A stretch of DNA of 64,000 bases from Candidatus Hodarchaeota archaeon (GTDB lineage Archaea > Asgardarchaeota > Lokiarchaeia > Sigyniarchaeales > SOKP01): positions 8,210 through 72,209 of the forward strand of contig JBHLJZ010000006.1 in NCBI GenBank assembly GCA_048887165.1. The letters run 5' to 3'. Shown here piece after piece: positions 30,289 through 50,765 of this stretch; the first letter of the stretch is position 1; every line of letters starts with the position of its first letter. Below the pieces are notes generated by a model, which made no database searches, was not told the origin of the DNA, and saw nothing but the letters and a program-made list of their open reading frames with translations. The position numbers and the translations under genes are program-made.

Positions 30289-31248
30289 ATGGCTTCATCT
30301 CCCAAGAAAATTTATGAAGATTATATTGAAAATTATGTAAATAGAACTATTGCTATAGAGTTATTGATTTCAATAATTGAAAATTCAGAGAATGAATCTA
30401 ATAGGTTTGAAGCTATTGAAATTTTAGATAAAATCAAGGCAAGTAGTCCGGAGATTTTTAAATTATATGAAAATTTGATGATTAGTGACTTAAATTCTAG
30501 AATCAGAGCACGTGCTATTTTATATCTTCCAAAATATTTCGTAGAAGAAGCTTTACTTCCATTAAAATGGGCAATTAGACACGAAGATTCATATGAATGT
30601 TTAATCAATATTATTAAAACTCTTGAAAACTACTATCCAAAGGAATCCCATTCAATCTTTTTAGAAGAAATAAAAAAAATCAGGAAGATTCGCTATTTAA
30701 ATTATGAAAAAAGGTATGAGAATAGAAAATTCAAAAAAGCATTAAAAAAGTTAATAAAATCGAGTCAAATTAAAAATTTTTCAAAAAACAAATTAGCTGA
30801 AATTTTAATCAATTATTTCACCATTCAAAATCTCTCTAGTAAATTCCCTAATATGTTTTTTGAGTTAGAATCGCAAAATGCTTTAGTAAGGGAATTAGAT
30901 TTATCTGATTACTTAGAGCATGAAGTTAAAGGAACTCCTTGGGGCTGGAAGAATAATATTCAATCAATTTCAGAAATAACTGGATTGGAAAATTTAAAAA
31001 ATCTAAAAAGTTTAGATTTATCTAATAATCTAATAAACGATATAAAAGATTTAATCGAATTAAAGAATTTAACTCATCTAATTTTGTCAAATAATAAGAT
31101 TAGTCATCTTGAAAATCTTGACTATATAAAAAAATTACCAAATCTTAAAGTTATAGATCTTAGTGGAAATGATATTGTTAATTTTTTTAATCCTGAAGAC
31201 TTTAAGACAAAAACTAGAATTCTCGTAAGAAGATCACTTATAGAATAG
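30289..31248 (+). CDS. HEAT-like repeat + short LRR protein (paralogue 4, SDS22-like 22-residue LRRs)
   Basis: 319 aa. The N-terminus is homologous to the other three (PKKIYEDY...AIELLISIIENSENESNRFEAIEILDKI, ISDLNSRIRARAILYL, AEILINYF). About 4-5 LRRs follow (LKSLDLSNNLINDIKDL...). Confidence 0.75.
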   Translation: MASSPKKIYEDYIENYVNRTIAIELLISIIENSENESNRFEAIEILDKIKASSPEIFKLYENLMISDLNSRIRARAILYLPKYFVEEALLPLKWAIRHEDSYECLINIIKTLENYYPKESHSIFLEEIKKIRKIRYLNYEKRYENRKFKKALKKLIKSSQIKNFSKNKLAEILINYFTIQNLSSKFPNMFFELESQNALVRELDLSDYLEHEVKGTPWGWKNNIQSISEITGLENLKNLKSLDLSNNLINDIKDLIELKNLTHLILSNNKISHLENLDYIKKLPNLKVIDLSGNDIVNFFNPEDFKTKTRILVRRSLIE

Positions 31249-31281: not shown

Positions 31282-32628
31282 TTATTCTATTAACTGTGTT
31301 TTCCCAGTACCCCATATTCCAAGAGCTTTACCTAATTCTTCATGATCCTTGGCATATTTACTAACCGAAATACCTTGCATAACCGCATCAATTGCTTGTC
31401 TAAACGCCTTTGCACCAGAAATGGGACCATCGGGATGACTATGAATACCTCCTCCACTTCCTATAAGTATGTCCAATCCAGCTTCTTTTATACATTTTTC
31501 TACCATACCTTGCGTTATTCCACCACTAGGCATTGGTAAGGTAGGTTTTATATGTTGGAATGGATACCTAAGAGCTTTTAAATTTTGTTCATATCTTTCT
31601 TCAAGAATTTCTGCCTTTCCATAAGGGGCGGGGATTACAACAGTATCTGCTCCACACATCCTAGGGAATTTTGCAAGTACTAACATCGAAGTCAGTCCAG
31701 TCCACTCACCTCCAATATATGCCCCACCAAAATCCATATGCCCTAAAATCGGTACTTTTATTGAAGGATCTTCGGCAATCGCTCTCAATGCTTCAAAACC
31801 TGAAGTTAGATAATTAAGCATTAATGCATTAGCTCCAAGTTCTATCATTTTATCAGCATATTCAAACATTTCGGGAAACTTTGTGGTAATATTAATAGTA
31901 TAAAGTGTTTTTTCTCCTTTTTCTGAATCTGCTCTGTCAACAGCTTCCATTACCTTCACAATTCTATCTTCTAACCTGTTAAAAGAAGGATCCGAAATCA
32001 ATTCGTCATCTTTCACAACATCACAGCCACCAACAGCTGCTTTATATACTAAATCAGCAGCAACTTCACAAGTGTGACCTGTACATGGTTTAACCATATT
32101 GTTTAATAAAGGGCGCTCTGGTATTTTCATAAGCTTTCTTATACCATCAATTCCAAATTTGGGTCCTTTAAATTCTTCAAGATATTCTTTTGGAAATGCT
32201 AAATCAACTAATTTTAAACCATGAGTTAAACTAATATTACCAATTACTGTAGTAAGAAGCATTGGGATTCCCATTCCTTTAATATTTACAATAGGGAAAC
32301 CAATCTGAGCGAAATAATATCGTTCTTTCACATCCTTTGGTATAACGTATTCATAATGAGGTAATTCATACACTCCAAGTACTCTTGCTACATGATATTT
32401 TCTAACTTCTTCGGTTTCTGCAGGAACTCTAACCCATGTTCCTGTTGATTGTTCTATTGCTGCAAATCTAGATAAGTAATTAACATTCATTCCTTTTGGT
32501 CTTTTAATAATGAAGCTTGCAATTATATATTTCTCCAAATCAATGCCGTCTAAGCCAATAGCTTCTGGGATATCAAAATATTTTTCTGTACTGTCCATAA
32601 TTATATCAAGAAAGTGTAATTTTTTCAA
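31282..32628 (-). CDS. RuBisCO large-subunit family protein, probably a RuBisCO-like protein (form IV-like) rather than a carboxylase
   Basis: 448 aa. EQSTGTWV, GNIS, VKDDE and the C-terminal GSGGGIHSHPDGPISGAKAFRQAIDAVMQG are very close to archaeal RbcL. However, VKPCTG replaces KPKxG, GHMDFGG replaces GHRAMH, and VVIPAPYG replaces LHVGT. The comparison is from my memory of form III sequences. Confidence 0.7.
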   Translation of the reverse strand: MKKLHFLDIIMDSTEKYFDIPEAIGLDGIDLEKYIIASFIIKRPKGMNVNYLSRFAAIEQSTGTWVRVPAETEEVRKYHVARVLGVYELPHYEYVIPKDVKERYYFAQIGFPIVNIKGMGIPMLLTTVIGNISLTHGLKLVDLAFPKEYLEEFKGPKFGIDGIRKLMKIPERPLLNNMVKPCTGHTCEVAADLVYKAAVGGCDVVKDDELISDPSFNRLEDRIVKVMEAVDRADSEKGEKTLYTINITTKFPEMFEYADKMIELGANALMLNYLTSGFEALRAIAEDPSIKVPILGHMDFGGAYIGGEWTGLTSMLVLAKFPRMCGADTVVIPAPYGKAEILEERYEQNLKALRYPFQHIKPTLPMPSGGITQGMVEKCIKEAGLDILIGSGGGIHSHPDGPISGAKAFRQAIDAVMQGISVSKYAKDHEELGKALGIWGTGKTQLIE

Positions 32629-32692: not shown

Positions 32693-33796
32693 TCAGTCTT
32701 TAGATTTAGTTCTGGATTTTAAATTCATATAAGTATTTTCGAGAACATTCAAATATTCAATTAGTACTTTATCTGCTTTAGATTTTTTCTCGTATTCTGC
32801 TTTAATGATATTCAATAGATATTTTGGAAAGATGAGATCTAAATAGAAATCCGTGAGTAAAGCATAATATTCATTACCTCTTTCATCTTGAAAAACTTGG
32901 ATCATTTGACTCTCCCAGAGCATTCTTAAAACTTCGTTTATATCTTCAACTCCTTTCTTTTTAAGCTTTTCAAGGTCATTCTTAGTAACTATCGCTGTTC
33001 TTAATAGCCTTAGAGTCTCATAAACTTGAGGATTAATGATAACATCGATAATTCTAAGATTATCTTGTTCTGAGGGTTTATATCCTTGGAAGAATTTCTT
33101 TGTTTCAGTTCTATAATCTTCAGCAAGTCGTATAGGCAAACCTCTATCAGCAGGATCTTTTAGAAGTTGTACAGGAGGAACTCTTAAGATTAAGATGTCA
33201 TTTGTCAAGAAAATTAATTCAGAAGGCATACCTTTTACTGATGTTTCCTTAATTATTTCTCGTTTAGTTAATTCAATTAGAACACTCTCTAAATTTAAGA
33301 ATCCTTGTTTATATTTATCTTTTAACCATAACATTAATTCTGATTTAGAAACTACACCCTCGTCTCTAAGCCGATTAATTATCATTCTCTTTATCTCATC
33401 TTGAAATATCATGGCCAATCTCTGTTCAGCATTAAGAGAAGGGTAAACTGATAGACTTCGGAATAATGAAGGAACCATCGTCAAATAATTATCATCTTCA
33501 AGATTCTGTAAAATAATCCTTGAAGTGTCAATTAAACCACCTTCATAAGCGTCGGGATCATCATCTAAGTTTAATAATAAAAGAATATAATAACCATTTT
33601 CTGGACCGGTATAATATGAAGCTATGTTCAATGAACCTACCATTAGACTTATCATTCCTGATTCTCCACTGTACTCATGAGTACTATATACCTGCATCAA
33701 AGTTTTTTCAGTTACAATAATTTCTTCAGGATATTTTGCCAGTATTTCAGTACCGATTCTTTCATTCCATTTCATTAAGACTAATCCTACAGGCAT
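32693..33796 (-). CDS. Cassette A, gene 2: cytoplasmic protein with an N-terminal longin/roadblock-like domain and two winged-helix-like domains (paralogue of 35734-36843)
   Basis: 367 aa, about 60% identical by eye to the 369-aa ORF at 35734-36843 (MPxGLxLMxW, MISLMVG.LNIAS.YTG, INRLRDEGVVSKSEL, SVKGMPSEL, KKGVEDI, EYYALL). Its ATG overlaps the stop of the upstream membrane-protein gene (TAATG). Domain assignment is by pattern only. Confidence 0.5.
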   Translation of the reverse strand: MPVGLVLMKWNERIGTEILAKYPEEIIVTEKTLMQVYSTHEYSGESGMISLMVGSLNIASYYTGPENGYYILLLLNLDDDPDAYEGGLIDTSRIILQNLEDDNYLTMVPSLFRSLSVYPSLNAEQRLAMIFQDEIKRMIINRLRDEGVVSKSELMLWLKDKYKQGFLNLESVLIELTKREIIKETSVKGMPSELIFLTNDILILRVPPVQLLKDPADRGLPIRLAEDYRTETKKFFQGYKPSEQDNLRIIDVIINPQVYETLRLLRTAIVTKNDLEKLKKKGVEDINEVLRMLWESQMIQVFQDERGNEYYALLTDFYLDLIFPKYLLNIIKAEYEKKSKADKVLIEYLNVLENTYMNLKSRTKSKD

Positions 33797-34227
33797 TATA
33801 TAACGCCTCCTCTTGATTCACCCATTTGAGGTAATTTCTTCTTTTTTTTTGATTCTAATCCTAATATAACTTCCAAAGATAAGCCTAGCATCGCCCATTT
33901 ATCTCCGAATTTCTTAACCATATGTTCTTGTTTTGAGGGATATAAAAGGGAATCTGATATTGACTTTCTACTCTTTATATTTTTACTTATTTCTCTTGCT
34001 CTTTTTACGAATATTGGAATTTTTGCTTTTTGAATTGCTATGTATATGACTAAACTCCCTACAACTGCAACTACTACAATTACTATCATTAGGAAGTAGA
34101 ATATTGGAAATCCAAACATTTCTACCATATCGACAATAACCGTCGAAAATAGTGCTAGCGTTGTAATTATTAATACTAAGAAAAGTAAGATTAAATATTT
34201 AGATTTTGAATTCGTTTTAAAACTCAT
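33796..34227 (-). CDS. Cassette A, gene 1: small two-TM membrane protein carrying the conserved TM + basic cytoplasmic tail module
   Basis: 143 aa with two hydrophobic helices. The tail, IQKAKIPIFVKRAREISKNIKSRKSISDSLLYPSKQEHMVKKFGDKWAMLGLSLEVILGL, is homologous to the C-terminus of the 1443-aa protein at 36843-41174. Confidence 0.6.
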   Translation of the reverse strand: MSFKTNSKSKYLILLFLVLIITTLALFSTVIVDMVEMFGFPIFYFLMIVIVVVAVVGSLVIYIAIQKAKIPIFVKRAREISKNIKSRKSISDSLLYPSKQEHMVKKFGDKWAMLGLSLEVILGLESKKKKKLPQMGESRGGVI

Positions 34228-34600
34228 ATATTCAGAACCATTTTTTATAAGTTAATATTACTTTATAAGTTATTCTTTCAAATAAGAATTTTTTATCACT
34301 ATTAATGAAAATTCAAATTTTAGGAATTTCTTAAATTTTTCAATTTCGTATAATTTATAAAAAAAATATTGAGGTTAATAAAATTTTATGATTTTTCATA
34401 ATCTTTTAATACTCATATTTTCTGAAATCTATAATTAAAATCTCCTAATCTTTTAGCATTCACACTTATAAGAGATATTTAGCTTTTATAAAAGTTTAAA
34501 TATTTTAATTTAGATTGAAATATCAAAGAAAAGGTTATCTATAATCTTACAAAAACTTTAATAATATAAGATTTTTAAATTGCAATTTAGGTACTGAAAA

Positions 34601-35644
34601 ATGCTAAGACAAATTTATATCTTAAAAGACGGTAATGTTTTATACGAAAAGAACTTTGGAAAAGCGTTAACCCATGAGTCATTTCAAAATATTTCTCAGG
34701 AGATTTTAAAAGAGGCATCTCGAGGTTTGGGAAAGGATTTCGGAAGCACTTATTTTTTTAAACACAAAATCGTATATTCTTACGAGAAAGAATGCGGTTT
34801 ATTATTTATATTAATAGTGGGTTTAAACGATGAGATGAATCAAGTAAAATCAGAGATAACAAAGTTAAAAAATGAGTTTATAAACATTTTTGGAGATAAT
34901 CTTGATAATCTTGATACTTCTCTCATTGAGTTATTAAATCCTTTAATCTTTTCAATATATAAAAATATTAAAACAAAAATCTCTTTAGTAGGTTTTTCTG
35001 GAGTTGGGAAAACAACCATCACAAAATTAATCAGATCAGAAGAAATACCTGATGTACATATCCCTACCATAACTGGAAAAGTGTCAGCAATAAAGATAGG
35101 AAAATTGTATTTTCATTTATGGGATTTTGCTGGACAGGAACAATTTAGTTATTTATGGAATGATTTTATATATGGAAGTGATGCTGTTCTCGTAATAACT
35201 GATTCTTCATTAGAAAACGTTGAAAAGAGTAAATTTTTCATTGAATTACTAAAAGAAAATGCGCCAGATGCTCATGCTGCAATTATTGGAAATAAACAAG
35301 ATTTACCGGACGCCTTAAGTGTTGAAAAAATAGAAGAAATTCTTAAATTAAAAACTTATTCAATGATTGCTATAGATCCGGATAATCGCAATAAAATGAT
35401 TCAAATTATAGCAGACATATTAGAAATTAATACAGAGATATCACCATTACTAAAACCCCTTTTTGAAAGAGATTCTTTAATTTCTCAAGCTGAAACTTAT
35501 TTGAAAGAAGGAAACATGGTAAAAATTCACGAATCTTTTGAGAAAATCTCTGAGTTATGCTATGAACTAGGAGATTTCATTCTCTATAAAGAATTTCGTG
35601 AAAAAGCTGATAAAATTAAAGGACATTTAGGATATATTTTATGA
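34601..35644 (+). CDS. Longin-like domain fused to a Ras-superfamily small GTPase, with a C-terminal helical extension
   Basis: 347 aa. G-domain motifs are G1 GFSGVGKTT, switch-I PTITGK, G3 WDFAGQEQF and G4 GNKQDL. The N-terminal ~115 aa (IYILKDGNVLYEKNF...YFFKHKIVYSYEKECGLLFILIVGLNDEMNQVKSEITKLKNEFINIF) follow the longin profile. An ~80-aa helical tail follows the G domain. Confidence 0.65.
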   Translation: MLRQIYILKDGNVLYEKNFGKALTHESFQNISQEILKEASRGLGKDFGSTYFFKHKIVYSYEKECGLLFILIVGLNDEMNQVKSEITKLKNEFINIFGDNLDNLDTSLIELLNPLIFSIYKNIKTKISLVGFSGVGKTTITKLIRSEEIPDVHIPTITGKVSAIKIGKLYFHLWDFAGQEQFSYLWNDFIYGSDAVLVITDSSLENVEKSKFFIELLKENAPDAHAAIIGNKQDLPDALSVEKIEEILKLKTYSMIAIDPDNRNKMIQIIADILEINTEISPLLKPLFERDSLISQAETYLKEGNMVKIHESFEKISELCYELGDFILYKEFREKADKIKGHLGYIL

Positions 35645-35733: not shown

Positions 35734-36843
35734 TTATTTTTCTGATTCTGATTCTATTGGTAATTTAGTATGTCGGTAAGTATCTTCAAGTACTTTTAAA
35801 TATTCCAATAGAACGTTTTCAGATTTAGATTTTACCTCATATTGGTGCATTACCGTATTTAAGACATACTTAGGATATATTAAAGACATATGAAAGTCAG
35901 AAAGTAAAGCATAGTACTCAATACCGCGATTGTCTTGAAAAACATGAGCAAATTTATTTTCCCATAGTTTTCTTATTCCTTCATCGATATCTTCAACGCC
36001 CTTCTTTCTAAGTTTTGCTAAAGCGTTTTTAGTTACAACAGCAATTCTTAATAGTTTTAAAATTTCATAGATTTGTGGATCTGTAATTAAATCAATAATT
36101 TTTAAACTATCCTCTTCAGATGGGCGGTATGTCTGGAAAAAGCTCCGAACTTTTGACTTGTATTCACTTATAAGGCTTTCAGGAAGGCCTCTCTCTTCTG
36201 GCTTTTTTAACAACTTTATTGGAGGTCTCCTAATTATTAATGGATCATTAATAAGAAATAATAATTCTGAAGGCATCCCTTTTACTGAGGCTTCTTTTAT
36301 TATTTCTTTTTTAATTAATTCCATTAAAGTTGCATCTATATCAAAAAATCCTTTTCGATATTTATCCTTAAGCCATACTTTTAGCTCTGATTTCGAAACT
36401 ACACCTTCATCTCTTAATCTGTTGATTATCAATCGATTTACATCATCTTGGTAAGTTAAAGCTAAATTCTGCTCATCAGTTAAATAAGGATATGCGGAAA
36501 GTCTTTGAAATAGAAATGGTAGCATCTCCATATATGCATTATCTTCAATGTTTTGCATAATAATCCGAGAGATATCTGTCAGCCCTCCTTCATAAAGATC
36601 CGGATCATCTTCCAAACTTAAGAGAACAATTATGTATAATGATCTTTCTTTTCCTGTATAAAATGATGCTATATTCAAATGACCAACCATCAGACTAATC
36701 ATTCCTGGCTCTCCTGTATATTCATGAGCAGCATATATTTGCATTAAGGTTTCATCAGAGACTATTAATTCTTCAGGATATTTAGTAACAATTTCCGTTC
36801 CTACTTTAGGATCCCATCTCATCAATATTAATCCTAATGGCAT
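35734..36843 (-). CDS. Cassette B, gene 2: longin/roadblock-like + double winged-helix-like protein (paralogue of 32693-33796)
   Basis: 369 aa, full-length paralogue of 32693-33796, with the same TAATG stop/start overlap with the upstream gene. Confidence 0.5.
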   Translation of the reverse strand: MPLGLILMRWDPKVGTEIVTKYPEELIVSDETLMQIYAAHEYTGEPGMISLMVGHLNIASFYTGKERSLYIIVLLSLEDDPDLYEGGLTDISRIIMQNIEDNAYMEMLPFLFQRLSAYPYLTDEQNLALTYQDDVNRLIINRLRDEGVVSKSELKVWLKDKYRKGFFDIDATLMELIKKEIIKEASVKGMPSELLFLINDPLIIRRPPIKLLKKPEERGLPESLISEYKSKVRSFFQTYRPSEEDSLKIIDLITDPQIYEILKLLRIAVVTKNALAKLRKKGVEDIDEGIRKLWENKFAHVFQDNRGIEYYALLSDFHMSLIYPKYVLNTVMHQYEVKSKSENVLLEYLKVLEDTYRHTKLPIESESEK

Positions 36844-39800
36844 TATTCAGTATCTCCTCCATTTTTAATTAATTTATCCTTCCTTTTTGACATTTTAATC
36901 CTCATATCCTTTACTCCATAAACATCATCTAAAGAAAGACCTAACTCTTTCCATTCCTCTCCGAATAATTTTATCAAAGTCTCATCTTTCGAAGGAATAG
37001 AAATAGTTTCAGTTATAGGCTTTTTAGATTTTATATAGCCTTTCACTTTCCTGATCTTCTTAATATGTTTTGGAATTCGAGCTTGTTGAATTACTCTGTA
37101 TCCTACAAGACTACCAACAATACCTAAGGATCCAGCAACTATCAAAATGAAATAAAATGTAGGCATTCCAGGAAATACTTCTTTCATCTTTATTGTTATG
37201 GTGATATCGATTTCCTGAGTAGTAAAATTCGCTTTTTGAGCAAAGATTGTTCCTGGAAAAGTTTGTGAAATGAAGAAAGCTTGAATTTCATCAGTCTCAA
37301 AATTTAGTGTATAAGTACCAGGTGATTGTTCCTCGAAATAATAATCAATTTCTTGAGCGCGTAAAAAGACTGTAGCGTTTTCAAGAGGTATATATCCTCT
37401 AGATTCATCCATTAAATTGATTGTAATTTCGATATCATTTCCCTGAACGGCGCTAACTTGCTTTCCTTTAATATTAGTGGCATCAAGAGTATAATCAATC
37501 TCTCGATACCTAATTTCTAAATTAATAAGAGCAAATCTAGATTCGTAATTATTCTTTTGGAGATTGATATACAGAAAATAGAATCCAACACTCCTTATTT
37601 CAGTATTGAAATCCAATGAATAAGTTTTGTCTGCTTTTTGACTTAATATTCCAGAGCCATCAATTCCGGGGATAATTGATCCATTCGAATATAATTTTTG
37701 CCATGTATAAGAAGCAATATCTAAATCTCCAAGTATTTGACCACCTAATAACGTATCAGCATAGGAATAAGTAAAGTTTATTTCATCCTCAACCCATATC
37801 CAAGGGTTAGAATATGCGATAAATGAACTTCCATTTATAGTTGTTGGTCTCTCTAGAACTTCAAGAAATGTGTTAATTGTCTTTGATGTATAATTTTCTT
37901 TCAAGGCTGTTATTGTGATTGGATACTTACCAACATTTATCGCTAAACTTGTATTAATAGTACAGTAATAATAGTTATCATCAATAGGATCTTCAATAAA
38001 ATAAATGAGTGGTTGAGTAAGCCAATCAAATGTAATTGTTGCTCCATCTAATTTACTATCTGGAGGTACATAATATCTAACTGTAATATTAATGATTTCA
38101 CTAAACTCTTTTTCTAGTTCTGATATTTGTAGATGTGTAGCATAATCGTATAAATCTAGACTTGTTGCTGTAGCATTCACTCTTACCTGGTGATAATAAG
38201 GTTCTGGAGATTCATATCCTGGTACTAAGCCATCAATTATAAACCAGTAGTTTTTATAATTATTTCCAGCAGATAATTTACTTGAATTAATAGTAAGAGA
38301 ATAATTCATTAAAGTAAGGCCTTCATAATTTGCTGTTAAATCTACTATTAATACTGTTTGACCAGTATCCCAATCTTCTATATAACATGTAAAGAATCCT
38401 TCATCAGGCACTAAGTACCAATTAGTTCCATCGTCAGAATATGATATATTAATAGTTATATGTAAATCTCCAATACCCCATATTGCTTGCGAAATTTCAG
38501 CAATTATATCTATCTGAGTTTCTAATGTAGGTGGTGGGGGAGTTGCTTCATAATCAAGTATAATAGATGAATTTTGGTTCAATGTGTAATTATATTCAGA
38601 AACTTCTCCAAGAGGTTCCCATTGTTTTGGAGATGTGTTATTTACTGTAAAGTTAGCTGCAACTCCAATTCTCCTAAGTGTTATATTATAACTAAATCCA
38701 ATTCGAAATATAAAAGGTTCATATTCAGTATCGCTATGAGACGCCCAGCCATCGTTGTTTGTAGTTAAAGTTGTGATAATTGTTGTACCATTCCAGATTC
38801 TTACACTAACAAAAGGAACGGGATTATATGAATCATCATCATCAATAACCCTTACATTCATTTTAGATAAAGCTGTTTTGTTATAGATGTTAGTTAATTC
38901 TGTAGTATTGATCTTTATTATACCTGTATGAGCTCCAGCATTATAACCTTGAACATCAACTAATATACCATAAACTTCGTAATTCTCTCCCTTTAATTTA
39001 TCATTATCAACTGTTCCAATATCGATAGATTTAAAATATGATGTGCCTGACATAGATAGATTTTGATAAATTATATTCCCTGATGTTTGATTATATTTGT
39101 CAATATAGTAAATTGTCATATTATCAATCTGTTGATCCATCGATTCCAACGTTATATTAAAATTAATCAGCTTCTTATTGCTAAAATCACTCATCGATCC
39201 TCCGGTGTAAATACGTTCATTAACTTTATAATAATCTCCAGGATCTTGGTCGTAAATATTTAGGGATAATGAATGGTCAAAATACTTATCATATTGGGTG
39301 TAGTCAGATCGGTAAATGTAGCTTGAATTCAAAAGAAAATCATTAACATTATATCTTGTGTTATAGAAGAAAACCTCATAATAGTAAAATGATGCATTAT
39401 TCCATCGAAATCTTGCTGTACCATTAACTAGTGATATCTGCTTTAATAGAGTACCTCCACTATCATTGTAGACCTTCACGTATCCATCATCAAAAAGATC
39501 ATCATCCCAATCTACTATTTCAAAATCAATTGTCCAAATGTCCAGATATAAATCATATATATGGGATAATTCAGATACATTGTATAAATTCCAACTAGAT
39601 GTTCCAAAATTATCTCTTGTACTATTGAATACTTCATCTTCATAACTAGGGATAAAAGTATAATTCACAGAGAAGTTATATATGCCAAAATTTAAACCAG
39701 TAAAGATTGTTTGACCTGTTTGATCAGTAGTTTGCTTTTTTATTAATGTTGTATCCTGCATTAATGAAACTTCGGCATTTGGAACAATCATACCATCAAT

Positions 39801-41174
39801 ATCCCGAGCTATAACAGTAATATCGGATTTTTGTGTCTGTATCTCATTTAATTCAACTGTTATATCATCACTATAAGTGAATTCAACATCATCAACTTGG
39901 ACAAAAGCAGTATCATAATTACCCACAGTATTTTCATCACCATACATTCCAAATTCTAATGAAATGTTTTGACCCATATAATTACTTAGATCAAATGTTA
40001 CTAAACCTGTTAAATCACCTTGGGATGTATCAAAAGTTCCTGTTATTATACCAGTAGTGTAATTTTGTAATGAATAATAACCTTTATTATTATGAGTAAT
40101 TCCCTTAAAATATTCTAAATACTCACCAATTTGTTGATGTTGATCTGGATCGACGAATAGATTGGAAGCATTAATTACTCGAACAAAATATCCATCATTC
40201 CAAGCCTTAGATGAACTCCCATCAAATCCCCAAGTTTTAACGTTCTGCCAGAATCTTATATAAATACTCCCACTACCATCATTAACAATTGGAACGGTAA
40301 ACGGGTTGGTATAAAAAACTCCAGCATATTGATCGTCGTTACCCACACTTTCAGTTATTGAAGTTTGATTCGAACCCCATTTATAAGTATATGTTCCTCT
40401 TACTTGTTCTACGCCTCCAGGTACGTCAATTAAACAATTTTGCCACCATTCAGTTGCTTGATCTTCAGTTTGTGAATCTTCTCCCACATCTGGAGGTCTG
40501 GGTGCAATATCATCAGGTACATCATCAGACCAATTCCATCCTACTGGATTATAATAGTGAGGTGTTATTGACGGATCACCAGTTGGATCGTCCCCACTCG
40601 GCACATATTCGAAGTCCCCATTTTTTACTAATCCAATACCATACTCAACTGCAGTAGTCTCAACATCCATATTTCCATAGTATAAATATACATCAGTTTC
40701 GGTATTACTAGAGGCAGAAAGATTTGTATTGAAATATATTGCTGCGTCGCCTATTGAATAATCTTCACCATTGAAATCTTGAAAAATGTAAAACTCTCTT
40801 TCAATCGGTTCATTATTGATATATTCTATGACTCTTATATCTTTTAAAGTATCATTTACTTTACCTTGATATTCAGGATCTCCATAAGGAAGATTTACAA
40901 CAACTCCATAATTTTTTAGGTCTACACCAGCTAGATTTGTTATATTTACTAGTGACCTATAAGGCCAATCAGAATCCCACCATGGATGATCACCAGCAAT
41001 ACTTGATCTAGGATTTAATATTGTATCATCAAACTCATTCTCACCTATAGGATTCAACTCAAAGAGAAATGGAGCTAAACTATAGTAAATGCTCCCAGAA
41101 GTTATCGCTATTAATATAACCGACAGTGAAAGTAGTTTTGTAATCTTTTTTTTTCTATTCATAGTTTCTATCAC
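36843..41174 (-). CDS. Cassette B, gene 1: giant type-I surface glycoprotein (DUF2341-like, carboxypeptidase-regulatory-like and Ig-like beta domains) with the conserved TM + cytoplasmic tail module
   Basis: 1443 aa from the GTG at 41174; ATG at 41162 is more likely (MNRKKKITKLLSLSVILIAITSG, a signal/anchor). WWDSDWPYRSLVNITN...DIRVIEY...VYLYYGN resembles DUF2341. DITVIARDIDGMIVPNAEVSL...TDQTGQTIFTGLNFGIYNF resembles a CarboxypepD_reg fold. There are dozens of NxS/T sequons. The C-terminal TM is FYFILIVAGSLGIVGSLVGY, followed by the basic tail. Confidence 0.6.
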   Translation of the reverse strand: MIETMNRKKKITKLLSLSVILIAITSGSIYYSLAPFLFELNPIGENEFDDTILNPRSSIAGDHPWWDSDWPYRSLVNITNLAGVDLKNYGVVVNLPYGDPEYQGKVNDTLKDIRVIEYINNEPIEREFYIFQDFNGEDYSIGDAAIYFNTNLSASSNTETDVYLYYGNMDVETTAVEYGIGLVKNGDFEYVPSGDDPTGDPSITPHYYNPVGWNWSDDVPDDIAPRPPDVGEDSQTEDQATEWWQNCLIDVPGGVEQVRGTYTYKWGSNQTSITESVGNDDQYAGVFYTNPFTVPIVNDGSGSIYIRFWQNVKTWGFDGSSSKAWNDGYFVRVINASNLFVDPDQHQQIGEYLEYFKGITHNNKGYYSLQNYTTGIITGTFDTSQGDLTGLVTFDLSNYMGQNISLEFGMYGDENTVGNYDTAFVQVDDVEFTYSDDITVELNEIQTQKSDITVIARDIDGMIVPNAEVSLMQDTTLIKKQTTDQTGQTIFTGLNFGIYNFSVNYTFIPSYEDEVFNSTRDNFGTSSWNLYNVSELSHIYDLYLDIWTIDFEIVDWDDDLFDDGYVKVYNDSGGTLLKQISLVNGTARFRWNNASFYYYEVFFYNTRYNVNDFLLNSSYIYRSDYTQYDKYFDHSLSLNIYDQDPGDYYKVNERIYTGGSMSDFSNKKLINFNITLESMDQQIDNMTIYYIDKYNQTSGNIIYQNLSMSGTSYFKSIDIGTVDNDKLKGENYEVYGILVDVQGYNAGAHTGIIKINTTELTNIYNKTALSKMNVRVIDDDDSYNPVPFVSVRIWNGTTIITTLTTNNDGWASHSDTEYEPFIFRIGFSYNITLRRIGVAANFTVNNTSPKQWEPLGEVSEYNYTLNQNSSIILDYEATPPPPTLETQIDIIAEISQAIWGIGDLHITINISYSDDGTNWYLVPDEGFFTCYIEDWDTGQTVLIVDLTANYEGLTLMNYSLTINSSKLSAGNNYKNYWFIIDGLVPGYESPEPYYHQVRVNATATSLDLYDYATHLQISELEKEFSEIINITVRYYVPPDSKLDGATITFDWLTQPLIYFIEDPIDDNYYYCTINTSLAINVGKYPITITALKENYTSKTINTFLEVLERPTTINGSSFIAYSNPWIWVEDEINFTYSYADTLLGGQILGDLDIASYTWQKLYSNGSIIPGIDGSGILSQKADKTYSLDFNTEIRSVGFYFLYINLQKNNYESRFALINLEIRYREIDYTLDATNIKGKQVSAVQGNDIEITINLMDESRGYIPLENATVFLRAQEIDYYFEEQSPGTYTLNFETDEIQAFFISQTFPGTIFAQKANFTTQEIDITITIKMKEVFPGMPTFYFILIVAGSLGIVGSLVGYRVIQQARIPKHIKKIRKVKGYIKSKKPITETISIPSKDETLIKLFGEEWKELGLSLDDVYGVKDMRIKMSKRKDKLIKNGGDTE

Positions 41175-42142: not shown

Positions 42143-42442
42143 TTGTCTGAAAAAGAAGAAAAATTAATGGTAAGAAAAGCTACATTAAATTTAAGGAGAA
42201 AATATGGAAGAACTAAGCAAATTGATATTGTAGAACGTGATGCTTTTATTCCTAGTGCTTTAGAAAAAGAAATAAGAGAATCAATTACTAAGAAGAAATC
42301 AATTCTCGCATCAGACATTGCCTTAAAATATGATATTAGAATCTCTACTGCTAATAACTTACTGAAGCAATACGCTGAAGAAGGATTGATAAAACTTCTT
42401 GATCCTTCCCTAAAGGTAAAAATTTACGTTCCTAATTCTTGA
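42143..42442 (+). CDS. rps25e: Ribosomal protein eS25 (S25e)
   Basis: About 91-99 aa (TTG at 42143 or ATG at 42167). It has a basic N-terminus and a winged helix, ILASDIALKYDIRISTANNLLKQYAEEGLIKLL, as in archaeal S25e. Confidence 0.7.
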   Translation: MSEKEEKLMVRKATLNLRRKYGRTKQIDIVERDAFIPSALEKEIRESITKKKSILASDIALKYDIRISTANNLLKQYAEEGLIKLLDPSLKVKIYVPNS

Positions 42443-42699: not shown

Positions 42700-43785
42700 A
42701 TGGCACAAAATTTAATTGTTTTAGGAGAACTCCATCAAGATTTATATTATGAAACTGATTTTTATGAGGATCTAGTAGAAAAAATTGTTTCTAATATTAC
42801 AAACTTTGTAAGATACAATCCTGATGATATAAGTAAAAAAATTCTTGAAAAATTGGTGCAAAGAGGATTCTCAGATACTCCAAAAAAAATTGAAGGCCGC
42901 TGTTTTTTCAAAAGAGGAGGTAATGGAAATAACTCTTCTGAATATTTTGCAAGTTTGGGAGTTCCAACTAAACTTATATCTGTGATTGGAAGGGGAAGTG
43001 AATGGATGATTGATGAACTGAAGGAACTAGGGATAAATACTGACTCAATATTTCAGATAGATGAAATAACACCTGTAAGTACCATTATTAAATCAAAATT
43101 TACTACAAAAATACATTTAGCTCCAAACCTAAAAGAAAAGATGAATTTTGATGGATTGAATATATCTAATGGATTATTGGATAATGCAAAGTTAATATTT
43201 TCAACTCCTATAGCACAAAAATTTATAAATTTATTTAATAGAGGTGCAAATTCTGGATTAATTACCGCCTTTAATATTGAAAGACAAAAAATTCATACTT
43301 TAGAAGAACTCTCAGAATTAATTAAGGAGAAAAAACATTTATCTTTTCTTAATGTAAAAGATGCCTATCGAATTTTAGATAAAAAACTTTCAATAGATGA
43401 AGTAGATGAAATCTTTAAACAATTTGCACAAATCCGAATTTATACTGCAGGGAAAGATGGCTCCTATGTGTTTACAGACTATCTGAAGATTTTTTATCCC
43501 GGGATAGAAGTAGAAGCAATAATTGATAGAACGGGTGCAGGCGATTGCTATGCTGCGGGTTTTTTAACTAAATTATATGAACTTGTCGAAGATAAAAATC
43601 ATTTAGAACAATTACTTAAAAAGGAAAAATTAGAAATAACTAAGAAAATTCTAACTTCATGTATTGAATACAGTACTCATGCAGCAATATATAAAATAAC
43701 TAAACAAACTACTCCAACCAAAATTGAAATGGATAATTTTATTAAAACTTTTAAAATTAAGAATAAATTAAATGTTATTGAATAA
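42700..43785 (+). CDS. PfkB-family carbohydrate/nucleoside kinase
   Basis: 361 aa with GGNGNNSS (GG motif region) and the C-terminal IDRTGAGDCYAAGF (DxxGAGD motif). Confidence 0.75.
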   Translation: MAQNLIVLGELHQDLYYETDFYEDLVEKIVSNITNFVRYNPDDISKKILEKLVQRGFSDTPKKIEGRCFFKRGGNGNNSSEYFASLGVPTKLISVIGRGSEWMIDELKELGINTDSIFQIDEITPVSTIIKSKFTTKIHLAPNLKEKMNFDGLNISNGLLDNAKLIFSTPIAQKFINLFNRGANSGLITAFNIERQKIHTLEELSELIKEKKHLSFLNVKDAYRILDKKLSIDEVDEIFKQFAQIRIYTAGKDGSYVFTDYLKIFYPGIEVEAIIDRTGAGDCYAAGFLTKLYELVEDKNHLEQLLKKEKLEITKKILTSCIEYSTHAAIYKITKQTTPTKIEMDNFIKTFKIKNKLNVIE

Positions 43786-44707
43786 TCTGTAAGATAAGAT
43801 TCTCCATTTGGGGTTTTGCAGCTTCAATCTTATCTAATACTTCAACAGTCTGTCCTAAATCTTCTTCATTTTCTTCAATTATGAATAATAAGTAGAAATC
43901 TAAATTTCCAAACTTTAGAACCTCAACTACACCAGAATATCTGTCTCCATTTTCAAACTTATCAGAAAATTCAAATAATGTCCTATTTTCATCAATTATT
44001 TTCTTTTGAGCTTCCAAATATTTATCATAAATTCTCATTTTTTCGGTAAGATGCAGATGAGGGCGGTAAAATTCTCCAATTGTTATTCCTTTTACATCAA
44101 ACAATGAAATCATAATAGCATTGTAATTTTTACTTATTTCAGCAAATAATTGTGATACCATCTCTATTTTGTCAAACAGTAAAGAAAGCCCACTTGAAAA
44201 TGCATCCATTACAGATTTAATGTCATATATAGTTGTTTCAAAGAAAAAAATATCAAAATCATGACTATATCGTGTTAAAGCTTGCTTAATTGTCAAAATT
44301 CTCTGATTTATAACTCTATCTTTAACAAGTTGGGGATCAAATTTGTGGAACAATATACAAATCGGAGGATATTCTTGCTCTTCTTTAAAGTAAAGTAATA
44401 ATCGATCAATATAATCTATAGATTCAACATATCGATCGAAATCTTGTGCATCAATGACATAAAAAACTAAATCTGTTCCTGCAATATACTTATTAGGCTT
44501 TTTTAAGTATTCTTCTCTATATTGCGATTGACCTCCAAAATCCATCCTTACAAACTCAACACCTAAAAATTTAAAGGCGTCTCGAGCAACTTTTCTTGTT
44601 GGCATTAATTTCGAGACTTCCTCTTCAAATCCAAATCTTTTTGTGATAACAGTAATTATACTAGTTTTACCTGCATTATCTAATCCTAAGAAAGCAATTT
44701 TTTGCAA
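43775..44707 (-). CDS. Rag/Gtr1-family GTPase (G domain + C-terminal roadblock domain)
   Basis: 310 aa. G-domain motifs are G1 GLDNAGKTS, G3 DFGGQSQY and a Rag-type G4 HKFD (ICILFHKFDP, compared with RagA CLVHKMDL). TTIYDIKSVMDAFSSGLSLL is collinear with RagA [19 protein letters not shown]. The C-terminal ~130 aa alpha/beta domain has the size of the Rag roadblock dimerisation domain. Confidence 0.8.
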   Translation of the reverse strand: MQKIAFLGLDNAGKTSIITVITKRFGFEEEVSKLMPTRKVARDAFKFLGVEFVRMDFGGQSQYREEYLKKPNKYIAGTDLVFYVIDAQDFDRYVESIDYIDRLLLYFKEEQEYPPICILFHKFDPQLVKDRVINQRILTIKQALTRYSHDFDIFFFETTIYDIKSVMDAFSSGLSLLFDKIEMVSQLFAEISKNYNAIMISLFDVKGITIGEFYRPHLHLTEKMRIYDKYLEAQKKIIDENRTLFEFSDKFENGDRYSGVVEVLKFGNLDFYLLFIIEENEEDLGQTVEVLDKIEAAKPQMENLILQIIQ

Positions 44708-49910: not shown

Positions 49911-50765
49911 GTGAGATTCGTGTCGATTGACTGGGCTAAAGCTGAAGAAAAGCCTGATAAGAAGCAACCTGTCGAGGGAAGATTCTTATTAGATCTTAGG
50001 GCAAAGGTAAATGATTTAGAAAAACAATTGAGTGAAACAAAGAATGAATTGAATCAGACGAAGAATGAATTAGGCTCTACAGCAAGTGAATTGCAGAAAG
50101 CAACAAACAATCTAAAATCAACAAAAACTACACTAGAGGGAACTAAATCAGAGCTTGATAATACGAAATCAGCACTATTAGAAGCTCAAAATGAACTTGC
50201 CAGTTTAACCAAACAAATCGAAAGTCTTAATTCCCAGCTTTCTGAGGTAAATACCAAAGTAAGTGAACTGGAAAGCAGTTTAGGCAATAAAGAGAGTGAA
50301 ATATCTAATTTAACTTCAGAATTAGACTCTCTTAAAAAATTGGAGAGCCTTCCGGATGAATTAGCTAGCCTGAATGCTCAAATTGAAGAATTAAACAATA
50401 AACTTGCAGAAGAAACCGAAGAGAAAAACAATCTAAATACTCAATTAGGTGAATTGAATAATTTATTATTACAAAAAGATTCAGAGCTAGAAGAATTGAA
50501 AGTTACTTTAGGTGATAAAGATAAATTAGTTGCTGCTCAAACAGCTCGTTTAGAAGAAGTAGAAGGTGAATTACAAGAGTTAAAACCTCCAGACATGGGT
50601 GCAGGAGGTTTTGCTAGTGAAGAGAGGATTACATGCCCAATGTGTGGAGCTGTTGGTCAGAATATAAAATCTGTAGAAGATAAGTCCAAAGTTTTAAGTT
50701 ATGTTGGTCATATTCCGATGTATGCTAAGAAACATGTTTGTAAAAAATGCGGATATGAATTTTAG
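49911..50765 (+). CDS. Coiled-coil protein with a C-terminal zinc ribbon
   Basis: 284 aa with a GTG start. About 200 aa form a heptad-like repetitive coiled coil (TKNELNQTKNELGSTASELQKATNNLKSTKTTLEGTKSELDNTKSALLEAQNELASL). The C-terminus carries CPMCG...CKKCG. Confidence 0.55.
   Translation: MRFVSIDWAKAEEKPDKKQPVEGRFLLDLRAKVNDLEKQLSETKNELNQTKNELGSTASELQKATNNLKSTKTTLEGTKSELDNTKSALLEAQNELASLTKQIESLNSQLSEVNTKVSELESSLGNKESEISNLTSELDSLKKLESLPDELASLNAQIEELNNKLAEETEEKNNLNTQLGELNNLLLQKDSELEELKVTLGDKDKLVAAQTARLEEVEGELQELKPPDMGAGGFASEERITCPMCGAVGQNIKSVEDKSKVLSYVGHIPMYAKKHVCKKCGYEF

Follow-up and report, generated by a model that had tools for sequence, protein, structure and literature searches.

A longin-like, Arf-like small GTPase of Asgard archaea and its conserved gene neighbourhood

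Longin and roadblock domains serve as platforms for the Rag, Rab, Arf, SRβ, and MglA GTPases. Asgard genomes contain dozens of small-GTPase genes alongside genes for longin and roadblock proteins, and the cellular roles of these proteins are, to our knowledge, essentially unknown. The closest described systems are Asgard proteins in which the two kinds of domain are joined in one chain. Longin fusions to Arf-like GTPases were noted in Lokiarchaeum (Klinger et al., 2016, in the statement by which Dey et al., PMC4917890, cite that work), an AlphaFold2 (AF2) survey of 74 GTPases of MKD1 found roadblock or longin domains in 26 of them (PMC10933270), and the N-termini of AArf proteins are described as including “additional domains (such as longin)” (PMC11914678). 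The gene considered here lies on the forward strand at positions 34601..35644 of a 64,000-nucleotide stretch of DNA (hereafter, the window) from Candidatus Hodarchaeota archaeon (assembly GCA_048887165.1, contig JBHLJZ010000006.1, positions 8,210 to 72,209), and encodes a longin-like domain followed by an Arf-like G domain. An earlier reading, made from the letters of the window without database searches (hereafter, the sequence-only reading), had stated that such fusions were noted in Lokiarchaeota surveys and remain functionally uncharacterised, and the three accounts above bear this out.

The product is, with very high confidence as to identity and architecture, a three-domain small GTPase of Asgard (Lokiarchaeia/Promethearchaeota-type) archaea. 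The open reading frame (ORF) and its G motifs are real and well above chance level. The published Asgard fusions resemble the protein in the position of the longin domain N-terminal to an Arf-like G domain, in taxon, in the lack of a lipid anchor, and in being functionally uncharacterised, whereas its C-terminal three-helix domain and its linkage to genes for giant surface proteins and for a protein termed p370 are described in none of the published accounts consulted here. The architecture is therefore already known, and novelty may lie only in the conserved cassette of giant and p370 genes; no published description of this context was found in a literature coverage that is incomplete and gives no proof of absence. 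The best explanation overall, which we consider reasonably probable, is a three-domain GTPase working as a switch targeted to p370 and to the tails of the giant proteins. The gene and its domains are as follows.

34601..35644, + strand: complete gene, ATG start and stop included, for a 347-residue protein with a longin-like domain, an Arf-like G domain, and a three-helix C-terminal domain
34601..34966, + strand: predicted N-terminal longin-fold domain, residues 1-122 (AF2 of the isolated domain, Foldseek, sub-threshold PF13774 matches in orthologs)
34967..35425, + strand: Arf-like small-GTPase G domain, residues 123-275 (Pfam Arf; PDB profile matches to Arf1, Arl, and Asgard ArfR, E 1e-15; Foldseek)
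34991..35017, + strand: G1/P-loop GFSGVGKTT, residues 131-139 (invariant, 121/121)
35063..35080, + strand: switch I PTITGK, residues 155-160 (P155, T156, I157, and G159 in 121/121, T158 in 119/121, K160 in 117/121)
35123..35137, + strand: G3/switch II DFAGQ, residues 175-179, with Gln179 at the catalytic position (WDFAGQEQ invariant, 121/121)
35291..35302, + strand: G4 NKQD, residues 231-234 (N, Q, and D in 121/121, K232 in 120/121)
35357..35374, + strand: G5-like YSM(I/V)AI, residues 253-258 (M255, A257, and I258 invariant)
35453..35638, + strand: predicted C-terminal three-helix domain, residues 285-346 (AF2 helices; no Pfam family)

Domain architecture of the protein

The protein ends in ...KADKIKGHLGYIL*, i.e., in ...GHLGYIL, and is identical to an entry (P0001) annotated as “ADP-ribosylation factor-like protein” in a metagenome-assembled genome (MAG) labelled Candidatus Hodarchaeota. 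A database search returned 1131 detectable homologs, the best 120 of which are full-length proteins of Asgard MAG origin with at least 65% identity. Furthermore, 194 relatives were found among GTDB species representatives, and the best 80 of these come only from Asgard MAGs, the majority labelled Promethearchaeota/Promethearchaeia (Promethearchaeota being a phylum within the kingdom Promethearchaeati). Residue conservation was counted in an alignment of 121 homologs. The mean pairwise identity, taken from a 36-sequence alignment, is 60% in the N-terminal domain, 85% in the G domain, and 72% in the C-terminal domain.

The G domain contains G1, the switch I threonine, G3, G4, and a G5-like motif, and by these motifs the protein is a member of the Ras superfamily (P-loop, TRAFAC). 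The sequence-only reading had reported the G1-G4 motifs as intact, and GFSGVGKTT, PTITGK, DFAGQ, and NKQD were indeed found, invariant or nearly so in the homologs. Pfam Arf covers residues 122-256 with E 1.1e-21 and 77.5 bits against a gathering score of 22.3, whereas Roc (58.2 bits), Ras (53.1 bits), Gtr1_RagA (28.5 bits, over the G-domain core only), and SRPRB (16.3 bits) score lower; NCBIfam TIGR00231 (small_GTP) is matched at 49.3 bits, above its cut-off of 42.5. Judged by this best score among GTPase families, which is above threshold, the protein belongs to the Arf family in the PF00025 sense. The 60 best PDB sequence matches of the G domain are all Arf, Arl, or Asgard ArfR (8oun, 8oum), with 57 bits for the sequences of the ArfR crystal structures and 61 bits for eukaryotic Arf1. 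In Foldseek, the full model is matched by Arf1, Arl1, and GerdArfR1, followed closely by Rab5.

The interswitch spans 19 residues in Arf1 (T48 to D67) and 22 in Ras; in the window protein, T156, which is aligned with T48 of Arf1, is separated from D175 by 19 residues. Arf and ArfR proteins (HodArfR1/GerdArfR1, 8oun/8oum) are the best G-domain matches in both sequence and structure, and the shared traits comprise this Arf-length interswitch, the “IPTI” of switch I, a tryptophan pair (W174/W186, equivalent to W66/W78 of Arf1), and an NKQDLP identical to that of Arf. By contrast, the window protein has a Rab-like P-loop (GxSGVGKT), a G3 motif WDFAGQ with the Ras/Rab-like alanine instead of WDVGGQ, no amphipathic N-terminal helix, and extra domains at both ends. 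Of the mechanistic criteria for eukaryotic Arfs, the 19-residue interswitch and NKQD are thus present, whereas the N-terminal amphipathic helix or Gly2 (0/121) and WDxGGQ are absent. The pair of SRα SRX and SRβ (1nrj) likewise combines a longin-like domain with an Arf-related GTPase, and SRX stands at rank 38 among the Foldseek matches of the N-terminal domain; however, SRX and SRβ are separate chains, SRβ has its own transmembrane anchor, and the SRPRB score of the window protein is below the cut-off of 25.

The N-terminal domain (residues 1-122) takes a longin fold according to structure prediction. Briefly, the AF2 model comprises β4-9, β12-18, α25-40, β48-52, β55-62, β67-74, α79-103, and α106-121, and the same order of elements appeared in two independent runs, one of the full protein (mean predicted local distance difference test, pLDDT, 77; predicted template modelling score, pTM, 0.71) and one of the isolated domain (pLDDT 91, pTM 0.86). 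This order, β-β-α-β-β-β-α-α by DSSP, is the canonical longin order, as opposed to the α-β-β-α-β-β-β of roadblock domains. Foldseek with the isolated domain gave 48 PDB matches at E<=1e-3, led by ζ-COP, the σ-adaptins of AP-1/2/3, the μ-adaptin N-terminal domain, Sec22b, VAMP7, TRAPP Bet5, and SRX; the same search with the full-length model is dominated by GTPases and is uninformative on this domain. The longin-fold matches have E values of 4e-5 to 1e-3 and template modelling (TM) scores of 0.56-0.76 (TMq 0.76 for VAMP7), and most of their alignments span 119-127 columns, whereas most matches to roadblock proteins (LAMTOR subunits, MglB) are partial, with 74-110 columns. The absence of a longin fold had been named in the sequence-only reading as one outcome that would overturn it, and both AF2 and Foldseek found the fold present. 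The protein is not of the Longin SNARE class, since the G domain follows the longin domain and no SNARE or transmembrane match was obtained, nor of the Roadblock/LC7 class, since the domain opens with two strands, has no N-terminal helix, and has no Robl_LC7 match.

Homology of this domain to eukaryotic longins is likely, although it is unproven by sequence statistics. No Pfam family, including Longin (PF13774), matched the N-terminal domain of the window protein even at E<=10. By contrast, PF13774 appeared below threshold in 14 of 32 orthologous N-terminal domains scanned one by one (best E 0.0043), and the runner-up among weak families appeared in 5 of the 32. In ten individually scanned orthologs the PF13774 scores were 12.7-17.4 bits against a gathering score of 26.2, and in nine of ten orthologs examined residues ~47-98 aligned with positions ~17-66 of the family in a single register; this segment coincides with the one singled out in the sequence-only reading, whose assignment of a longin domain thus stands as to the fold, whereas a profile match was obtained for orthologs only, below threshold, and not for the window sequence itself. 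A family profile of the domain, searched against PDB sequences, reached AP-2 σ at a non-significant E of 0.3, in register (query 26-106 to chain 26-103), and its other matches were to aldehyde-decarbonylase and spurious. That the domain is not homologous to eukaryotic longins, and is instead a convergent or broadly related α/β sandwich of roadblock, profilin, or PAS/GAF-like kind, would agree with this sub-threshold statistic in orthologs, its lack in the window copy, the single PDB profile match at that E value, the roadblock proteins among the Foldseek matches, and the placement of longins in a broad PAS/GAF superfamily by Dey et al. It is nevertheless very improbable in our judgement, given the longin order of elements, the greater length of the longin-fold alignments, and the constant register in which Longin, by far the commonest weak Pfam family, recurs in the orthologs. 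Helix 106-121, which precedes β1 of the G domain, was also considered as an Arf-type amphipathic N-terminal helix, because the hidden Markov model (HMM) alignment to Arf1 begins there; this was rejected as the primary reading, as the helix is confidently modelled as longin α3 in the isolated domain and the alignments with longin structures span ~120-127 columns.

The C-terminal domain is modelled in the full-length AF2 run as three helices (285-303, 306-323, and 326-346) with pLDDT of about 90, and has no Pfam match at E<=10. The sequence-only reading had described a helical hairpin at this end; the helical character stands, and the model replaces the hairpin by three helices. That reading had also remarked on the missing lipidation motif, in agreement with the 121 homologs, in which no prenylation or myristoylation signal is present because none has a Cys within its last five residues (0/121) and none has Gly2. 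Furthermore, the model of the protein contains no transmembrane segment.

The fusion and the gene neighbourhood among relatives

The longin-like domain is an obligate partner of the Arf-like G domain. An exhaustive HMMER search of 1.84 billion representatives with a profile of the N-terminal domain yielded 125 proteins, of which three very long, multi-stretch matches were set aside as spurious. A Pfam scan of ten long matches found an Arf domain in all ten, starting at residue 114-125, and HMMs built for the individual domains found the N-terminal domain directly followed by the G domain in 55 of the 56 genuine matches of at least 300 residues. The gap between the two is 1-5 residues in 40 of the 55 fused representatives, and in the window protein a linker of ~3 residues rigidly tethers the N-terminal domain to strand β1 of the G domain. 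The C-terminal helical domain occurs in 37 of the 55, and the fused proteins range from 345 to about 800 residues. As both domains are carried by 55 of 56 proteins, the longin–Arf-like unit has diversified only at its C-terminus. The relatives found through the N-terminal domain all share that domain, no generic prokaryotic family with a different N-terminal domain emerged from these searches, and an indexed homolog search with the same profile returned fragments of this family only. A 151-residue metagenomic protein (P0132) matches the profile at E 1e-10 and has precomputed Pfam domains of TetR type, and probably stems from a chimeric or frameshifted gene call.

A paralogous tier of longin–Arf-like proteins (loci L054-L086) is found in the same genomes, with 55-59% identity, lengths of 600-814 residues, and a long C-terminal extension. 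Its context is different but conserved as well: a ~765-residue ORF precedes the gene in the same orientation, a small GTPase of ~177 residues is encoded downstream in the opposite orientation, and there is also a ~1080-residue ORF. Some relatives of similar length in the representative library have CdvA-like coiled-coil matches.

In the window, the GTPase gene lies on the forward strand between two minus-strand cassettes, whose parts are listed below.

35734..36843, - strand: downstream convergent gene for p370 (369 residues), the proposed partner (no Pfam family; Asgard-only)
36843..41174, - strand: giant 1443-residue putative single-pass surface protein, with a C-terminal transmembrane helix and a cytoplasmic tail; its stop overlaps the start of p370
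32693..33796, - strand: upstream p370 paralog, 367 residues, 62% identical to the downstream p370; its start overlaps the stop of the 143-residue gene
33796..34227, - strand: 143-residue membrane protein with an N-terminal and a C-terminal transmembrane segment and a conserved tail
34228..34600, no strand: divergent intergenic region, 373 bp, AT-rich, with presumed promoters (from sequence)

Conservation of this arrangement was counted in 48 orthologous loci from species representatives, the denominators being the loci with enough flank.

Convergent p370 no more than 400 bp downstream of the GTPase: 44/44 loci
Giant ORF abutting the downstream p370: 37/38 loci
Upstream p370: 32/38 loci
Upstream p370 with an abutting giant: 29/38 loci

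The p370 family comprises at least 779 homolog clusters, all Asgard-derived and all annotated as hypothetical. Its N-terminus has a conserved W-D-x3-[GS]-T motif, and two winged-helix-like segments are visible by eye, where only weak eWH_GTF3C1 matches occur. The giant proteins (1200-1950 residues) are putative surface proteins with Laminin_G_3 and CarboxypepD_reg-like domains, and the 1443-residue protein of the window has weak Ig-like/CarboxypepD_reg matches in Pfam. An alignment of 68 giant C-termini, among them those of loci L007-L053, shows a transmembrane helix, a juxtamembrane “YRVIQxARIP”, and a basic tail of ~60 residues with the motif “P[ST]K[ED]E..VK.FGD.W...GLSLE”. The overlap of the giant stop with the p370 start suggests that the two are translationally coupled. 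In other genomes the upstream cassette carries a giant of 1200-1950 residues. The 143-residue protein that takes its place in the window is 42% identical to the C-terminus of the 1443-residue protein, aligns with tails of the upstream type, and lacks the ectodomain; it is a tail-only remnant or a minimal version of the upstream giant. Upstream p370 genes without a giant ORF also occur at L033, L037, and L042, and together with the tail-only protein they suggest that the tail is the part under selection. Some loci (L015, L016, L041, and L045) have three tandem cassettes of giant plus p370.

Several other neighbours were recorded. A RuBisCO large-subunit homolog (31282..32628, - strand) lies upstream of the cluster in 22 of 24 loci, and a leucine-rich-repeat/HEAT-repeat protein (30289..31248, + strand) is a further conserved neighbour. 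A 310-residue Gtr1/RagA-like GTPase (43775..44707, - strand; Pfam Gtr1_RagA, E 1e-22) is found in 18 of 24 orthologous loci at a distance of ~7-8.5 kb on the downstream side of the longin–Arf-like gene. A PfkB-family sugar kinase (42700..43785, + strand) lies between it and the S25e gene (42143..42442) in the window; the S25e and RagA-like genes are adjacent in loci L001-L006, and the kinase looks like a lineage-specific insertion. A 284-residue coiled-coil protein (49911..50765, + strand) has weak matches of crescentin-rod, MscS_porin, and ATG16 type. A reading of the region as a defence island was rejected: PADLOC returned only a 30-residue P-loop match for the GTPase (VakA, E 0.0018) and nothing for four neighbours, and these are conserved core genes.

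A candidate mechanism and its rivals

The GTPase would cycle between GTP and GDP as other Ras-superfamily switches do. Because it has no amphipathic N-terminal helix and no myristoylation or prenylation site, its localisation and choice of partner would be governed by its two extra protein domains, of which the longin domain, perhaps together with the helical domain, may form a binding or dimerisation platform. In a Ras-fold G domain, both chain ends leave the fold side by side, on the face that points away from the nucleotide site; both accessory domains are therefore expected on that face, and the switches would remain free for a partner in trans. This face of Arf-type GTPases responds to the bound nucleotide by way of the interswitch, and the longin domain could conceivably be coupled to it. 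The likeliest partners would be one or both p370 paralogs and, through p370, the cytoplasmic tails of the giants, so that the GTPase could gate a sub-membrane complex assembled on these tails. The output might be outside-in signalling, or an effect on how the surface proteins are positioned, inserted, clustered, or turned over. This choice of partner and mechanism, drawn from genomic context, is tentative, and we hold it to be possible rather than probable. The sequence-only reading had offered an auto-regulated or a platform-tethered switch, and the second suits the conserved neighbourhood better than the first.

By analogy, the logic of an Arf, a longin adaptor, and a membrane-protein tail may be compared with the recruitment of ζ-COP and σ-adaptins by Arf1, these proteins being the top structural matches of the N-terminal domain; however, the match is to a generic fold (12-23% identity), and the locus yielded no large adaptin or coat subunit. 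Rag/Gtr on Ragulator and MglA with MglB are likewise small GTPases on longin or roadblock platforms. Roadblock proteins are among the partial matches of the N-terminal domain, and Tran et al. described the related MKD1 G domains as “Rag-like”. By contrast, the roadblock domain of Rag proteins is C-terminal and heterodimerising, whereas the α/β domain of the window protein is N-terminal with longin topology, and its Gtr1_RagA score is low.

Several observations weigh against the proposed switch on p370 and the giant tails. The nucleotide binding and hydrolysis on which it depends are predicted from motifs, and helix α1 and switch I (residues 136-158), despite their invariant sequence, have pLDDT <50 in the AF2 model of the full protein, which may reflect alternative nucleotide-state conformations or a shallow alignment. 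Vargová et al. recognise two groups, “ArfL”, which is confined to Asgard archaea, and “ArfR”, which is the true sister of eukaryotic Arfs; we infer that the window protein belongs to ArfL in the sense of Klinger et al., a phylogeny-free placement made because Dey et al., in the statement citing Klinger et al., put the Lokiarchaeum longin fusions among “Arf-like” GTPases. A further indirect indication is that the ArfR crystal-structure sequences score no higher than eukaryotic Arf1. Searches with p370 against Pfam, NCBIfam, and PDB sequences found no match, and its profile showed no resemblance to that of the GTPase N-terminal domain. The N-terminal “RWDxKVGTEI” of p370 was tried as a C9orf72-like element and rejected, since hhalign against the validated C9orf72 sequence gave Prob 0.13; the W-D-x3-G spacing, identical to that in the W33-D34...G38-P39 motif of C9orf72, is a curiosity only. 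Near the long paralogs p370 was found at none of 32 loci, and the longin–Arf-like module as such therefore needs no p370. The orthologs, furthermore, come from one fairly compact lineage with 64-88% identity, and a control with bystander genes at 24 loci found RuBisCO in 22, a methyltransferase in 19, and the RagA/Gtr1-like GTPase in 18, against 24 for p370. As the bystanders are kept almost as often, much of the synteny is inherited, and its value as strong proof of function was downgraded on account of this control.

A rival view is that the neighbourhood is coincidental, the GTPase being a general switch unrelated to p370 and the giants whose adjacency is kept by genome kinship. RuBisCO, the methyltransferase, S25e, and the RagA-like gene behave as this view expects, the GTPase is encoded on the strand opposite both cassettes and hence is not co-transcribed with them, and the paralogous family sits in a different context. 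However, the core of GTPase, p370, and giant is alone in being kept in 44/44 loci and persists where loci are rearranged (L020, L025), and the GTPase consistently lies between duplicated cassettes; we therefore regard coincidence as somewhat unlikely, while giving it real weight. A different possibility is that the action is intramolecular, the fused longin domain docking onto the switches of the G domain in the same chain as a GTPase-activating protein (GAP), a guanine nucleotide exchange factor, or a pseudo-effector and forming a self-contained timer. The obligate fusion with its very short linker would fit, as would the full-length pTM, which suggests a compact arrangement, and longin and roadblock domains act on GTPases in trans, with MglB–MglA (6h5b) and SRX–SRβ (1nrj) among the structural matches. 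GAP-type longins (FLCN, SMCR8, C9orf72, NPRL2), however, have a GP motif opening β2, beside the arginine finger (PMC12290439). This motif is absent from the N-terminal domain in the 121 homologs, which have no Pro in the β1-β2 turn, and that turn is the most variable stretch of the N-terminus (D10 in 63/121, position 11 mostly E or G). The only invariant Arg of the domain is R3. The arginine finger of FLCN and SMCR8 presumably lies at a mid-domain position, and no conserved Arg was noted there. Because the ~3-residue linker enters β1 on the face away from the nucleotide site, moreover, the switches would be geometrically hard to reach for the longin domain, and auto-regulation of this kind is in our view unlikely.

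A Rag-like obligate dimer, with the longin domain as the dimerisation module of a homodimer or of a heterodimer with the long paralog and with communication between the two G domains, is judged to be no likelier than auto-regulation. It draws on the homodimers predicted by Tran et al. for longin- or roadblock-fused GTPases of MKD1, the G domains of which are Rag-like but close to Arf, on the largely dimer-forming nature of the longin and roadblock subunits matched by Foldseek (LAMTOR, MglB, TRAPP, and σ/μ adaptins), on the two paralogs present in many genomes, and on the RagA/Gtr1-like GTPase encoded ~7 kb away in 18/24 loci. The G domain nonetheless scores 28.5 bits with Gtr1_RagA against 77.5 bits with Arf, and the domain order is reversed relative to Rag proteins, the C-terminus being helical and not roadblock. 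The switch targeted to p370 and the giant tails remains the reading that we prefer.

Bearing on Asgard biology

The protein itself represents no new category, and is notable for its conservation (85% in the G domain), its obligate fusion, and the recurrent cassette beside it. At its broadest, the GTPase, the two p370 paralogs, and the giant tails would form one Asgard-specific machine consisting of a tail, a cytoplasmic adaptor, and an Arf-like switch. Such a machine would be a prokaryotic counterpart, possibly a forerunner, of the system by which Arf brings longin-containing adaptors to cargo tails, or of outside-in signalling by receptors, and the fused longin domain would represent the state before its separation into different polypeptides in eukaryotes; we consider this a distinctly unlikely, speculative extension. 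Asgard GTPases and longin or roadblock proteins bear on the origin of the eukaryotic endomembrane and signalling systems, and the conserved cassette names concrete partner candidates, p370 and the giant tails, whose pairwise interactions are directly testable in organisms that can now be cultured.

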